Positions 17,860 through 37,224 are shown, counted from the first letter of the stretch. The stretch: 64,000 bases of DNA from Deltaproteobacteria bacterium (GCA_040218735.1 JAVJQW010000062.1:128001-192000), one strand, 5' to 3'. Numbers and translations: made by a program. Notes: generated from the sequence alone by a model not told the origin.

Positions 17860-17875
17860 AGCAGGCGCCGTGCCA
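17860..17875 (-). promoter_or_regulatory. Sigma54 (-24/-12) promoter for the 383-aa gene
   Basis: Minus strand TGGCAC-GGCGC-CTGCT versus consensus TGGCAC-N5-TTGCW, with correct GG-N10-GC spacing, about 55 nt upstream of the ATG. Confidence 0.75.
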
Positions 17876-33109: not shown

Positions 33110-34504
33110 CTAAGCCCCCGTCCCCTTGAAGTCCTCCGCCGCGATCTTGTGGCGCTTCATCAGCTGCCACAGGTTCTTGCGATCCAACCCCGCGCGCTTC
33201 GCGGCGTTGGTGATGTGGCCCTCCGCCTCTTCGAGCACGGCGGTCACGTAGTCGCGCTCGAAGCGTCGGAGGATGGCGTCCTTTTCGTCCTTGAACGTCC
33301 CGAAGCCCGCCTGGATCCGCGGCGCGGCGGCGCCGGCGGCGGGCGCGGCGCCGAGGTCGATGTCGTCCGCGCGTACCTCGCTCTCGCGCGCCATCACGAC
33401 GATCTGCTCGACCTTGTTCTCGAGCTCACGGATGTTGCCCGGCCACGCGTAGCTCTCCAGCCGACGGTAGACCTCCGGTGAAAACGCGATCTGCTTCTTG
33501 AACTGCGCGTTGAACCGCTCCAGGAAGCTCGAAGCGAGCAGCGCGATGTCGCCGGTCCGCTCCGACAGCGGAGGTAGCTGCACCGGCACCACGTTGAGGC
33601 GATAGAACAGGTCTTCGCGGAACGTCTTGTCCTCGACGGCCTGCTTCAGGTCGCGGTTCGTCGCCGCGATGATCCGTACGTCGGCGATGCGGCTCTTCGG
33701 CGAGCCGACCGGCTTGTACTCCTTCAGCTCGAGGAACCGCAGCAGCTTCACCTGCACCGACAGCGAGATCTCGCCGATCTCGTCGAGGAACAGCGTACCG
33801 GTGTCGGCCGCGTCGACGAGGCCGGGGTTGTCGGCGTGGGCGTCCGTGAACGCGCCGCGCCGGTAGCCGAACAGCTCCGACTCGAGGAGCTGCTCCGGGA
33901 GCGCGCCGCAGTTCACGGTCACGAACGGCTTGTCGGCGCGCCGAGACAGCTCGTGCACACACCGTGCGACGACCTCCTTGCCTGTCCCCGACTCGCCGTA
34001 GATGACGACCGACGCCTCCGTCTGCGCGAGCGTGGGGAGCTGGTTCTTCAGCTCGATCATCTTCGGGCTCCGCCCGATCAGCCGCTCGGAGGGCCCGGCC
34101 GCGATGGAGCTCTTGAGGCGCTGCACCTCCTTGGTGAGGGAGACCTGCTCCATCACGCGCTCGAGGCGGTGGATGAACACCTCCTTGGTGAGAGGCTTGG
34201 TCAGGTAGTCGTCCGCGCCCCGCTGCAGGTAGTCGACGGCGCCCTCGATCGAGCCGTACCCCGTCATGATGATGACCGGGATGTGCGCAAATTCGCGCTT
34301 CACCGTGGTGAGGAGCTCGTCGCCCGAGAGGACCGGCATCCTCAGGTCCGTGATGAGGATGTCGACCTCGCCGGCCTGGACCCGGTCCAGCGCCTCCTGT
34401 CCGTTGCTGGCGAAGTCGAGGCGGATGTCCTGCCGGTCGCGGCAGAAGATCTTGAGCAAATAGAGGTTCGTCTTGTCGTCGTCGGCGATGAGGACGTTGA
34501 TCAT
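33110..34504 (-). CDS. Sigma54-dependent response regulator (NtrC-type enhancer-binding protein)
   Basis: Receiver (ADDD, TDLRMP), GESGTGKE, ESELFG..RGAFTDA, LFLDEIGE, FREDLFYRLNV, WPGNIREL, Fis-type HTH. Confidence 0.96.
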   Translation of the reverse strand: MINVLIADDDKTNLYLLKIFCRDRQDIRLDFASNGQEALDRVQAGEVDILITDLRMPVLSGDELLTTVKREFAHIPVIIMTGYGSIEGAVDYLQRGADDYLTKPLTKEVFIHRLERVMEQVSLTKEVQRLKSSIAAGPSERLIGRSPKMIELKNQLPTLAQTEASVVIYGESGTGKEVVARCVHELSRRADKPFVTVNCGALPEQLLESELFGYRRGAFTDAHADNPGLVDAADTGTLFLDEIGEISLSVQVKLLRFLELKEYKPVGSPKSRIADVRIIAATNRDLKQAVEDKTFREDLFYRLNVVPVQLPPLSERTGDIALLASSFLERFNAQFKKQIAFSPEVYRRLESYAWPGNIRELENKVEQIVVMARESEVRADDIDLGAAPAAGAAAPRIQAGFGTFKDEKDAILRRFERDYVTAVLEEAEGHITNAAKRAGLDRKNLWQLMKRHKIAAEDFKGTGA

Positions 34505-34689
34505 GGGGAGCCCCAAGAGGGAGTCTGACCTGGACGGGGTAAAAAGACCACGCGCTATCTTCGCGATCTCCCCACAATTTACGGGGAGCGACCCTTATTG
34601 GGGCGAAATTACCGCGGCAAAACGAGGCTCAATCACCACGTTTTGACGCCCTGCATGAGAAAAACCCAGTCTTTCAGACAGCCCAATGT

Positions 34690-34705
34690 TGGCACCGCCA
34701 TTGCT
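34690..34705 (+). promoter_or_regulatory. Consensus sigma54 promoter
   Basis: TGGCAC-CGCCA-TTGCT is an exact TGGCAC-N5-TTGCW match in an AT-enriched intergenic region. Confidence 0.85.
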
Positions 34706-34715
34706 ATGTTGGTGA

Positions 34716-34856
34716 TTGCCGACGGAAACGTCTCGGGTGTGTTCCCCCCACTGCTCGAGAGGTGTCCTGAGGCGCGGAAACCGGGTGTGGGCAAGCATCT
34801 GGGCTGACGGGAATCCCCCCTTCCTCGAGGCACGGTGCTTGTCCAGCCTTCTTTTT
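34716..34856 (+). ncRNA. Candidate sigma54-dependent small RNA (about 140 nt)
   Basis: Starts at the expected +1 of the sigma54 promoter. GACG-GAAA-CGTC hairpin, 12-bp closing stem 34788-34799/34834-34845, U-rich tail CTTCTTTTT, and no credible plus-strand CDS before the convergent HAD gene. Confidence 0.6.
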
Positions 34857-34874
34857 GCTCCCAACAGCAAGTTT

Positions 34875-35549
34875 TCATTTGTCGATGGTCTCCTCGGGTG
34901 CGCTGCGCCCGAGGAGACGGTCGAGTAGCTCGGCCGGCGTCCGGCTGAGCGTCGAGACCTGCGCCCGCAGGCCCTCCGGGTCGAAGCCCCACCGCACGCC
35001 GAAGAACGGTCCGCCGAACCGCGCCGCGGTCGCCGCGTCGATCGGCATGTCGCCGACGTACGCGACCTCTTGCGGATCGATCCCGGCGCAGCCCGCGCGC
35101 TCGAGCGCGAGGTGCACCACGGCCGGGTCCGGCTTCTTGTTCGGGACCTCGTCGGCGCTCGCCGCCGCGAGTCCCAGCGCGAGCCCCTCCACCACGGGCA
35201 CCGTGAACGCCGCCGGTTTGTTCGTCGCGATCGCGCACGTGACGTTCGCGGCGCGCAGCCCGTCGAGCATCGCCCGGACACCATCGTAAGGGCGCGTGGT
35301 CTCGAGGAGCCGCCGCCGGTACGCGTCGTAGAACCGCGCGTGGGTCGCTTCGAAGAGCTCGTCCACACGTTCGCCGAGCGCACGTTGGATCAGGACCTTG
35401 GCGCCGCCGCCGATCATCGTCCGGATCACGTCGGGTCCGAGCGGCGCGGCGCCGACTTCAACGAGCACCTCGTCGAGCGCCGATGCGATGTCGCGGTAGC
35501 TGTCGATCAGCGTGCCGTCCAGGTCGAAGACGGCGACCGAGATCACCAC
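34875..35549 (-). CDS. HAD-family phosphatase (phosphoglycolate phosphatase-like)
   Basis: FDLDGTLIDS, ATNK, KKPDP, YVGD..ID. Confidence 0.92.
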   Translation of the reverse strand: MVISVAVFDLDGTLIDSYRDIASALDEVLVEVGAAPLGPDVIRTMIGGGAKVLIQRALGERVDELFEATHARFYDAYRRRLLETTRPYDGVRAMLDGLRAANVTCAIATNKPAAFTVPVVEGLALGLAAASADEVPNKKPDPAVVHLALERAGCAGIDPQEVAYVGDMPIDAATAARFGGPFFGVRWGFDPEGLRAQVSTLSRTPAELLDRLLGRSAPEETIDK

Positions 35550-35550
35550 C

Positions 35551-36351
35551 TCAGCCGTCCACGCCCACGACGATCGCGACCCCGGATCCGACCAGGAACG
35601 CCGACCCGATGAACGTGTTCGGCAGGAGGTCCGTTCCGCGCTCCACGGCGAAGACGATGACGCCGTAGATGCCGTCCTGCGCGAACGTCGCGGCCGGCAC
35701 CTCTAGCGACCGATTACCGTCGCCGACGATCAGCTCGAGCACCTCCGCGGCGGTCTGCGGGCGACTGTCGTAGACCACCATCGGGTCGTCCGGCGCGTTC
35801 GGATCGGCCCGGAGCACCACGACGTAGCCGTACTTGCCGTACTGCGCGGGGAACGTGAGCGTGAGCGCCGTGTTGGCCGGGTGCAACAGCGCCTCCGGGA
35901 CCGACGGGTGCGCCGCGGTCGGCTGCGGCGACAGGCTGATCGCCGCGGGCGTGAGCTGCTCGGGCGCCGCCGGCACCGTGCCGCCGCGCCGCGCGCCGTT
36001 GACCTCGGCCGTGAACGTGTACGCGCTCCCGGCGCGGTAGACGAGCTCACCGTTTTCGAGCGACGTGAGTGTATAGCGACCGTCGCTCGCGAACGGCAGG
36101 TCGAGCGATTGGTCGTCGATGATCAGCGCCGCGATCGCGCCGTCGACCGGGGTGAGGTTCGACGACACCGCGTTGTCGCGTTCACTCACCCACGCCGACG
36201 CCACGACCTCGGACGGGACGTCGAGCTGCCCCTGGATCGAGACGGCCGGGGTGGCGACGGCCAGGCCGCCGATCACCGTCGTGGCCTGGGCGGAGTCGAC
36301 GACCTCGCAGGCCGTCGTGAGGAACAACACCGTAGCGAAAACGAGACGCAC
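35551..36351 (-). CDS. Hypothetical lipoprotein
   Basis: GTG 36351 reads MRLVFATVLFLTTAC (lipobox); beta-rich body. Confidence 0.75.
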   Translation of the reverse strand: MRLVFATVLFLTTACEVVDSAQATTVIGGLAVATPAVSIQGQLDVPSEVVASAWVSERDNAVSSNLTPVDGAIAALIIDDQSLDLPFASDGRYTLTSLENGELVYRAGSAYTFTAEVNGARRGGTVPAAPEQLTPAAISLSPQPTAAHPSVPEALLHPANTALTLTFPAQYGKYGYVVVLRADPNAPDDPMVVYDSRPQTAAEVLELIVGDGNRSLEVPAATFAQDGIYGVIVFAVERGTDLLPNTFIGSAFLVGSGVAIVVGVDG

Positions 36352-36405
36352 GCTGGCAGCGTACCAAACAAGAGACTTTGACTCGTACGTGTCCGTCGCC
36401 TTCAG

Positions 36406-37224
36406 ATGAGGTCGATGCGGGTTGCGTTCGCCAAGTACCAAGGGCTCGGCAACGACTTCGTGGTGGTGCGCGCCGAAGACGCGCGGATCACCGCCGCGGC
36501 CGCGCGGCGCCTGTGCGACCGGCGCCGCGGGATCGGTGCCGACGGCGTCCTCACCGTCTCGGCGCCGCGGGTGTCTCAGGCCGACGTCCGGATGCACGTC
36601 TTCAACGCCGACGGCTCCGTCGCGCAGATGTGCGGCAACGGCCTGCGCTGCGTCGTCCGCTTCGTCCTGGGGGGCGACGGCCGCGTCGCCGTCGACACCG
36701 ACGCCGGGGTCCTCCAAGGCCACGTCGACGGGGGAACCGTCAGCGTCACGATGGGGCACGCGAGGCTCACCCACGCGAACGTCGACGCCGCGCCGTTCGC
36801 CGGCGTGGGCGTCTCGATGGGCAACCCCCACCTGGTGCTCGACCCCCTCGCCGCCTCCGACGATCTGATGGCGCTCGCCCGCGAACACGGACCGCGCCTC
36901 GAGCGCCACCCGCAGTTCCCGGAGCGCACCAACGTCGAGCTGTGCCGCGTCCGCGACGACGGTGACGTCGACCTCGTGGTGTTCGAGCGCGGCTCCGGCA
37001 TCACCGACGCGTGCGGGACCGGCGCCTCGGCGACCGTCGCGGCGCTCGCGAAGAAGGGACGTGTGCCCTACGGCGAGGTCGTCACCGTCCACCTCCCGGG
37101 CGGGCCGCTCGGCGTGAAGATCGAAGCCGACGACGCGACGCTCGGCGCCGTGACGATCGCGGGCGACGCCGTGCACGTCTTCGACGGCGCGATCGAGCTC
37201 GCCCCCGAGGAGCTCGCCGGGTGA
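36406..37224 (+). CDS. dapF: Diaminopimelate epimerase
   Basis: KYQGLGNDF, GIGADG, NADGS.AQMCGNG, SMGNPH, ERGSGITDACGTG. Confidence 0.97.
   Translation: MRSMRVAFAKYQGLGNDFVVVRAEDARITAAAARRLCDRRRGIGADGVLTVSAPRVSQADVRMHVFNADGSVAQMCGNGLRCVVRFVLGGDGRVAVDTDAGVLQGHVDGGTVSVTMGHARLTHANVDAAPFAGVGVSMGNPHLVLDPLAASDDLMALAREHGPRLERHPQFPERTNVELCRVRDDGDVDLVVFERGSGITDACGTGASATVAALAKKGRVPYGEVVTVHLPGGPLGVKIEADDATLGAVTIAGDAVHVFDGAIELAPEELAG

Follow-up and report, generated by a model that had tools for sequence, protein, structure and literature searches.

A predicted sigma-54-dependent small RNA encoded divergently from an enhancer-binding-protein gene in an uncultured lineage of Myxococcota

The window analysed in this study is the whole stretch of 64,000 nucleotides (64 kb) of DNA taken from the 11.6-Mb genome of a bacterium that belongs to an uncultured, class-level lineage of Myxococcota. 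Two minus-strand genes of this window are separated by a spacer of approximately 370 bp, whose G+C content (55–58% vs 64–75% in the flanks) agrees with the statement of an earlier note, made from the sequence, that the spacer is richer in AT than its surroundings. The gene on one side encodes an NtrC-type response regulator, an enhancer-binding protein (EBP) of 464 aa (counted from the ATG at 34504); it is monocistronic and no kinase gene was found beside it. The gene on the other side encodes a HAD-family hydrolase and is convergent, which leaves the promoter described below with no mRNA to drive, as had been claimed. The genomes of this lineage are very large and carry at least 80 EBP-like genes. 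The features of the locus are:

33110..34504, minus strand: gene of the NtrC-type response-regulator EBP (Pfam Response_reg, Sigma54_activat, AAA_lid_14 and HTH_8)
34505-34874: spacer of ~370 bp between two minus-strand genes
34535..34552: predicted upstream activator site 1 (distal), an 18-bp palindrome, CGGGGT-AAAAAG-ACCACG
34599..34616: predicted upstream activator site 2, TGGGGC-GAAATT-ACCGCG, centred at about -108 from the predicted start
34623..34640: predicted upstream activator site 3, CGAGGC-TCAATC-ACCACG, centred at about -84, 24 bp from site 2
34690..34705, plus strand: sigma-54 (-24/-12) promoter, TGGCAC-CGCCA-TTGCT
34716..34856, plus strand: predicted sRNA of ~141 nt (start placed from promoter geometry, end from the U run)
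34731..34760, plus strand: predicted stem-loop SL1, an 11-bp stem with a 7-nt loop, UUCCCCC (34742-34748), in the conserved loop context GUGUUCCCCCCAC
34772..34786, plus strand: predicted short hairpin SL2, GC-CGG-AAA-CCG-GU, the weakest element
34788..34845, plus strand: predicted terminator hairpin SL3, with a 12-bp lower stem UGGGCAAGCAUC/GGUGCUUGUCCA and an apical stem that closes the second C-rich loop
34850..34856, plus strand: U-rich tail UCUUUUU of the predicted intrinsic terminator
34875..35549, minus strand: HAD-family hydrolase gene (Pfam HAD_2 and Hydrolase matches), convergent

The metatranscriptome run X20 yielded a single 151-nt contig, approximately 94% alike, which spans positions 34487-34637, and none on the RNA gene. 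The locus is also contained in three DNA runs.

The perfect plus-strand -24/-12 promoter that had been proposed at 34690-34705 was found there by direct reading. It is the sole perfect match to TGGCAC-N5-TTGCW within the 64-kb window, and when one mismatch was allowed, 2 sites were obtained vs 0.73 expected. Genome-wide (11.6 Mb), there are 8 perfect sites, and in 6 of the 7 others an ATG follows within approximately 75 nt, whereas none does so after the promoter in the spacer. Among the 14 related loci described below, a GG-N10-GC promoter occupies the aligned position in 13 (this includes L222, in which GT replaces GC at -12); the promoter of L010 has a spacing that is short by one base.

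Upstream of the promoter, two GGGG-N8-CC[AG]C sites had been recognized earlier. Both are present, but they constitute the cores of longer, 18-bp palindromes (sites 1 and 2), and a third palindrome (site 3, 34623-34640) had been missed. An inverted repeat CTCCCC/GGGGAG, pointed out together with these sites, does exist (34568-34573 and 34583-34588), but it is kept partly and in the same-genus relative only. The palindromes are shared across the family, with the consensus TGCGGT-N6-ACCGCA and a regular arrangement, in which the centres of sites 2 and 3 lie 23–24 bp apart and site 1 is placed approximately 64–88 bp farther upstream. In site 3, the GG/CC columns are invariant in the alignment, while an equivalent of site 1 was found with a regular expression in 13 of the 14 loci (all except L007). 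A cluster of three such sites occurs only once in the host genome, at the spacer locus, and for this reason the EBP looks dedicated to the sRNA promoter. The GG-N10-GC core, the presence of rpoN in the host genome (Sigma54_DBD, 223.9 bits), the AAA+ EBP and the predicted sites 80–200 bp upstream together point to a promoter of the sigma-54/EBP type.

The predicted sRNA has a fold energy of -66.2 kcal/mol, lower than that of 200/200 dinucleotide-preserving shuffles (z = -3.17). Its two C-rich tracts are located where they had been reported, i.e. TTCCCCCCA at 34742-34750, in SL1, and ATCCCCCCTTCCTC from 34813, enclosed by the 12-bp stem of SL3, which pairs 34788-34799 with 34834-34845 and holds the C run of its loop at 34815-34820. 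The U-rich tail was also confirmed and ends at 34856, so a G+C-rich hairpin is followed directly by UCUUUUU, as expected of an intrinsic terminator. A simple terminator scan gave no match at the locus, because it permits loops of 3–8 nt only and the SL3 loop exceeds this size. The GAAA-tetraloop hairpin listed by the earlier note (GACG-GAAA-CGTC, 34721-34732) is present in the sequence, but it is not kept in relatives and falls outside the minimum-energy fold.

The distribution of the locus was analyzed in the lineage of the host, whose family, order and class all comprise the same 20 species-representative genomes. Orthologues of the EBP (60–78% identity) were identified in 11 of these 20, and the same-genus genome G001 has a 12th copy, truncated where its contig ends. 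A search with R1, a covariance model built from seven spacers and containing no Pxr sequence, found the RNA in 8/20 genomes of the class, in a single copy in each. In three further EBP-bearing genomes that lack a model match (G008, G010 and G009), a diverged module was recognised by eye: their spacers contain three palindromes, a TGGCAC-N5-(G/A)TGC promoter, one or two hairpins with a C7–C8 loop and different stem sequences, and a U-rich tail. The spacer of the remaining EBP-bearing genome, G007, retains two palindromes, and a gene fills the rest of it, with no promoter or RNA. Thus, the module is found in 11 of the 12 EBP-bearing genomes and in none of the 8 genomes without an EBP orthologue. 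The RNA is also present on 3/3 metagenome contigs carrying an EBP with 74–79% identity, and in all 14 distinct examples of the module are available. In the window itself, R1 and the second model, R2 (a structured model from 11 family sequences), matched positions 34714-34860 and 34718-34860, respectively.

Several other candidates were rejected. A genome-wide search for paralogues, i.e. a sigma-54-like promoter combined with a C6 run, returned 4 sites, and the three besides the one studied here look like mRNA leaders. A scan of genome contigs with a loose stem pattern covered at least 120 stretches, and among the matches listed almost all are from unrelated phyla; the Myxococcota matches (L079, L105 and L152) were considered chance ones, as they have neither promoter nor C run. 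The phylum was searched with R1 in 151 genomes under strict filters. Beyond the 8 strong genomes, 14 others (13 outside the class, and G019 within it) gave matches at E 0.006–1, which have no sigma-54 promoter and are mostly coding-like, and the candidate L285 has only the terminator stem in common with the family. Sampling of 131 other genomes from the phylum yielded no convincing intermediate RNA.

When the members were compared, hardly any change was seen in the loops GUGUUCCCCCCAC and GGA-N-CCCCCC(C)UUCC, in contrast to the stems on either side of them, which vary. In a hairpin test, in which the C run was held unpaired and the result compared with shuffled flanks, the first C run was placed in a hairpin loop in 14/14 members, beating the shuffled flanks at p <= 0.05 in 11/14 (not in L004, L005 and L010), and the second C run was placed in the loop of a stable hairpin in 12/13 (not in L010). 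Covariation across relatives, which had been suggested as a check, was then evaluated with pair counts that rest on a MAFFT alignment of the 11 closer sequences, fitted to no structure. In the four-helix structure, 78.5% of cells were paired vs 37.5–46.3% when the 3' partners were slid by 1–3 columns; the covariation score was 0.281 vs 0.087–0.150, and the number of cells changed on both sides was 27 vs 13–17. None of 500 column shuffles reached the observed value for the percentage paired, the double-change cells or the covariation score. Double changes were counted in 13 pairs, a figure that does not clearly stand out, since 58/500 shuffles reached it and the slid structures gave 9–13. Helix 1 (SL1) has 6 pairs changed on both sides, helix 3 (SL3) is 89% paired, and SL2 (helix 2) has 74.5% of cells paired and 3 pairs changed on both sides. 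The helices thus covary across relatives, and in L223, L303 and L304 the stem sequences of SL1 and SL3 are wholly replaced and still complementary, with the loops kept. A T-rich tail follows SL3 in 8/11 close members. In the other three (L004, L223 and L225), SL3 lacks a U run and is followed by an extra hairpin with a C6–C8 loop and then by the U run.

The Rfam scan of the window gave no family at gathering score, and at E <= 10 only four chance-level matches (miRNA, lncRNA and snoRNA models) were obtained in the region 34400-35000, with none to RsaE/RoxS or 6C RNA; the Qrr covariance model was not matched in the window. The RNA family therefore appears to be undescribed, as judged from Rfam and from literature searches that were not aimed at the lineage by name.

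Taken together, these results indicate that the spacer is very probably a single-copy gene for a trans-acting sRNA of approximately 141 nt (34716-34856, plus strand), activated by the EBP via sigma-54. The central proposal of the earlier note, an unannotated sigma-54-driven sRNA that a divergent EBP would control and that would pair through its C-rich tracts, is thus supported by conservation at 14 loci, by covariation and by the loss of the open reading frame in a sister species. According to this model, the divergently encoded NtrC-type response regulator would be phosphorylated by an unlinked kinase, bind the three 18-bp palindromes, centred at about -84, -108 and -172, and remodel sigma-54 RNA polymerase at TGGCAC-N5-TTGCT. 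Transcription would end at the SL3 hairpin and its U run, and the resulting RNA would expose a C-rich loop in SL1 (GUGUUCCCCCCAC) and another in SL3 (GGA-N-CCCCCC(C)UUCC), both of them invariant. The most likely role of these loops would be to base-pair with target mRNAs at G-rich stretches that resemble Shine-Dalgarno sequences and to block translation independently of Hfq, which was not found in the host genome (96.5% complete). The EBP probably controls its own gene as well, through site 1, since this site lies 31–48 bp upstream of the EBP start codon. Genome-wide, 9-mers complementary to loop 1 gave 151 matches (16 of them beside a plausible start codon) and those complementary to loop 2 gave 216 (52 beside one); as the scan used neither annotation nor a background control, no target is nominated.

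Pxr is an sRNA that blocks fruiting-body development in Myxococcus, and its longer form, Pxr-L, is processed to Pxr-S; tests of Pxr homologues by expression in an M. xanthus pxr deletion strain are described in PMC5568312. The earlier note had seen no basis to call the RNA of the window Pxr. With respect to membership this judgement stands, given that the regulator, the gene order and the SL3 stem differ, but it overlooked a near-identical SL1 loop and, as described below, the match of R2 to all 18 pxr loci. For the comparison, pxr loci were retrieved by a primer printed in PMC5684412 and the M. xanthus locus was read directly. It has a sigma-54 promoter (TGGCAC-GGCGA-CTGCT), followed by SL1 (CUGAAGG-CGGUUCCCCCCCACC-CCUUCAG), SL2 and the terminator SL3. 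The SL1 loop is GGUUCCCCCCCACC in M. xanthus Pxr vs GUGUUCCCCCCAC in the family, i.e. they are one extra C apart, so that both share GUUCCCCCC(C)AC in this loop at a similar distance from a sigma-54 promoter that lies directly upstream; the C run is located 46 nt (pxr) vs 40 nt (window) downstream of the -12 GC. Both RNAs are approximately 110–140 nt long, have three stem-loops, the last of which is a terminator, and adjoin a gene for an NtrC-type EBP. Hfq, described as absent from M. xanthus in PMC5684412, is a further point in common, as it was not found in the host of the window either.

The similarity was also detected by the covariance models, although their E-values come from a shortened calibration and are rough. 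R1 matched full-length exactly on pxr in 12/18 loci (E 0.028–0.35 in 96 kb) and R2 did so on pxr in 18/18 Cystobacterineae loci, in 14 at E <= 0.0015 and in four at E 0.18–0.27 (160 kb). The R2 scores of Pxr were 17–21.5 bits for fourteen loci and approximately 10 bits for the other four; the diverged syntenic family members L303, L304 and L307 scored 14.5–20.8 bits, alike to the fourteen Pxr loci, while control loci not selected by any model remained at <=6 bits in approximately 130 kb. In the alignment of R2 with Pxr, SL1, the spacing and the terminator were aligned and the apical part of SL3 was deleted in Pxr. Since the 18 Pxr sequences are close kin, they amount to few independent observations. 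The reverse search was less productive: a Pxr model (effective number 0.82, from 18 sequences with a mean column identity of 91%) detected 2/14 family RNAs, at E 0.087 and 0.25, and also matched the extra hairpin of L004. R2 applied to five whole genomes (four of Polyangia type and M. xanthus) gave one match, at E 0.18, and did not recover pxr from the whole M. xanthus genome at E <= 0.5; because 150 of 5636 candidates over the five genomes were scored, this search is a weak negative.

Other features separate the two RNAs. The EBP of the window and PxrR share 42% identity (vs 48% for the best paralogue), and each ranks approximately 15th in the reciprocal search, so they are not orthologues. 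According to PMC5568312, pxr follows pxrR (nla19) in the same orientation and precedes Mxan_1079/1080, whereas the RNA of the window is divergent from the 5' end of the EBP gene. The upstream palindromes have GTGAAAAAG-type arms in M. xanthus, unlike TGCGGT-N6-ACCGCA in the family. In PMC5684412, an invariant 8-bp segment of the SL3 stem is given as characteristic of Pxr, and this stem is GCGGCCCG/CGGGCCGC in Pxr vs the unrelated CAAGCAUC/GGUGCUUG in the family. The second (sometimes third) C-rich loop of the family is also missing from Pxr. Moreover, the origin of pxr is placed in the Cystobacterineae (PMC11928866, PMC5568312), and the host of the window represents a class-level lineage outside the group in which, by these accounts, the gene arose. 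The best PxrR-like EBP gene of the host genome G000 (C20:243517-244902) was also considered as the neighbour of a pxr-like RNA; this was rejected, the region downstream of that gene being coding.

For these reasons (an EBP that is not the PxrR orthologue, a different gene order and a weak reverse model test) the RNA is called Pxr-like and not Pxr. It would work like Pxr and has its seed-like loop, and common descent is possible. In the strongest form of this idea, the RNA would be a true Pxr homologue. Both would go back to a single sigma-54-dependent sRNA with a GUUCCCCCCAC seed loop, present in the Myxococcota before their classes diverged, and the EBP, its sites and the gene order would have been exchanged later. 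The loop and its position, the common architecture and the model scores equal to those of diverged family members speak for such a history, but the differences listed above, the poor return of the reverse and genome-wide searches and the lack of an intermediate in 131 genomes weigh against it, and selection for the same G-rich targets could have produced a short C-rich loop on two occasions. We therefore regard homology as a tentative option, rather doubtful on present evidence, which would refine the preferred reading of an EBP-activated, trans-acting sRNA and does not exclude it. If it is true, Pxr did not originate recently in the Cystobacterineae; the seed and the G-rich sequences that it targets would be old, and the part swapped between lineages would be the sensing side (EBP, sites and gene order). 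The near-identity of the SL1 loops matters because PMC11928866 describes the direct targets of Pxr as unknown and places the origin of pxr in the Cystobacterineae. With the same seed in two distant RNAs, G-rich complementary sites kept in both lineages would be the prime target candidates, and the pair makes it possible to test whether an sRNA seed persists after its regulator has been replaced or evolves anew.

The same C-rich loops could, in principle, bind a protein instead of mRNAs. The RNA would then be a sponge, whose C-loop hairpins sequester an RNA-binding protein, as CsrB/RsmZ do. The number of these hairpins is modular among the members, being 1 in L307, 2 in most and 3 in L004, L223 and L225, 10/11 close members have a GGA triplet ahead of the second C run, and a CsrA gene is present in the host genome, which keeps the model alive at low probability. 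However, the prediction places the GGA in the paired apical stem and not in a loop, and the locus has no linked poly-C-binding protein. Inactivation of Pxr by the change of one loop base, reported in PMC5684412, fits pairing and protein binding equally. In our opinion, this function is improbable, and mRNA pairing by the C-rich loops is preferred.

Even less probable, and very much so, is cis-antisense control of the HAD hydrolase, in which read-through past SL3 would collide or pair with the HAD mRNA and SL3 would serve as a bidirectional terminator. The stop codon of the HAD gene is located 18 nt from the U run, the gene is syntenic in several relatives and a further strong hairpin (34882-34924) lies within its 3' end. 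Against this, the conserved parts of the transcript are its own loops and helices and not sequence antisense to HAD, a terminator comes directly after them, and L004, L223 and L225 gain a C-loop hairpin instead of entering the neighbouring gene. That the transcript is the mRNA of a small protein, or the leader of one, is hardly credible, as the 70-codon frame (34716-34928), while open in the window, begins with TTG, has no conserved ribosome-binding site, no Pfam match and a stop in the same-genus relative, and overlaps the HAD gene on the opposite strand, whereas among the members the frame differs, none being open in all, and the C runs are spaced by 62, 63, 70, 71, 72, 74 or 75 nt, i.e. by indels that are not multiples of three.

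Besides Pxr, the preferred reading, i.e. an EBP-activated sRNA acting in trans, may be compared with several known systems. In Vibrionaceae, the qrr1 and luxO genes are divergent. The qrr1 gene is described as lying immediately upstream of vanO/luxO, the gene of its own response-regulator EBP (PMC3352281); its promoter is described as dependent on sigma-54 and preceded by palindromic sites (PMC10162802), and the Vibrio regulator is reported to repress its own promoter by binding the shared region (PMC2632942). The locus of the window resembles this system in the position of the sRNA gene upstream of its own EBP gene, in the sigma-54 promoter and in the palindromic sites, and the location of site 1 suggests that the same self-repression of the EBP may operate here. 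The differences are in the palindrome, which is TTGCAWWWTGCAA for Qrr1/LuxO vs TGCGGT-N6-ACCGCA in the family, in the seed, which in the family is a C-rich loop, and in the requirement of Qrr RNAs for Hfq, none being found in the host of the window; there is also no sequence or Rfam match between them.

Another response regulator, DVU0679 of Desulfovibrio vulgaris, has as its mapped target the adjoining Dv_sRNA2 gene, and this pairing is described as conserved in related species (PMC3333781). In that case, however, the sRNA gene is placed downstream of the regulator, and Rfam scans gave no sequence relation with the RNA studied here.

C-rich loops, in turn, are known from RsaE/RoxS (Firmicutes) and 6C RNA (Actinobacteria), which carry several C-run hairpins and are thought to pair with G-rich ribosome-binding sites without Hfq; these RNAs come from unrelated phyla and are not known to use sigma-54. 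Small RNAs controlled by sigma-54 and an EBP stand at the head of major lifestyle switches, namely quorum sensing (Qrr) and myxobacterial development (Pxr), and the predicted family described here would extend this known type of module (Qrr/LuxO, Pxr/PxrR) into a deep, uncultured lineage of Myxococcota.

The number of hairpins with C-rich loops was found to differ among members of the predicted sigma-54-dependent sRNA family. Downstream of the terminator hairpin SL3, three of them (L004, L223 and L225) have an additional hairpin, which has a C6-C8 loop and is followed by a strong U run, and therefore the number of C-loop modules per family member ranges from 1 to 3. The positions of these extra hairpins are:

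L004:2556-2607, minus strand: extra C-loop hairpin of L004
L223 and L225, just downstream of the respective SL3: extra C-loop hairpin of each locus

A terminator stem (GGACAAGCACC/GGTGCTTGTCC) almost identical to the lower stem of SL3 was also identified in locus L285 (G075:C588:13542-13591), which originates from an unrelated genome within the phylum. This locus carries neither a C-rich loop nor a sigma-54 promoter, and the similarity is probably due to chance. In locus L302 (genome G007), the orthologue of the divergently encoded sigma-54 activator (EBP; 72% identity) and two of the upstream palindromes are retained, and a minus-strand gene replaces the promoter and the RNA. The RNA is present in G015, the other species of the same genus, and its absence from L302, together with that of the promoter, could mean that both were lost recently or that sequences were joined there during assembly.

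Two further features are associated with the convergent HAD hydrolase gene:

34882-34924: perfect 14-bp inverted repeat (GGTCTCCTCGGG...CCCGAGGAGACC) within the 3' end of the hydrolase coding region
35551-37176, minus strand: 541-aa ORF directly downstream of the hydrolase gene (higher coordinates)

The inverted repeat, also kept in the same-genus relative, gave Rfam matches to miRNA models at chance level; it might halt transcription that continues past the sRNA gene from its promoter, or act as the terminator of a neighbouring transcript. The 541-aa ORF had no Pfam match at E <= 0.001.

The sigma-54-contacting loop of the EBP (33110-34504, minus strand; residues about 217-222) reads GAFTDA in place of GAFTGA. 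This variant seems to be fixed across the orthologue group, since the peptide FTDAHADN was among the search patterns with which the orthologues were recovered. The EBP repertoire of the source genome is very large even by Myxococcota standards: when the whole genome was compared with a sigma-54 EBP, 80 or more matches reached E <= 1e-40. Despite this, only 8 perfect consensus sigma-54 promoters are present. The window also holds a second, imperfect site:

17860-17875, minus strand: sigma-54-like site TGGCACGGCGCCTGCT, one mismatch versus the consensus

In M. xanthus, the sigma-54 promoter of pxr is preceded, at a distance of about 100-150 bp, by a large inverted repeat (TCATAGGTGAAAAAG ... CTTTTTCACTTATGA; L203:2745-2800, minus strand). 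This repeat, a candidate binding site of the activator PxrR, is unlike the palindromes found upstream of the Pxr-like sRNA described here.
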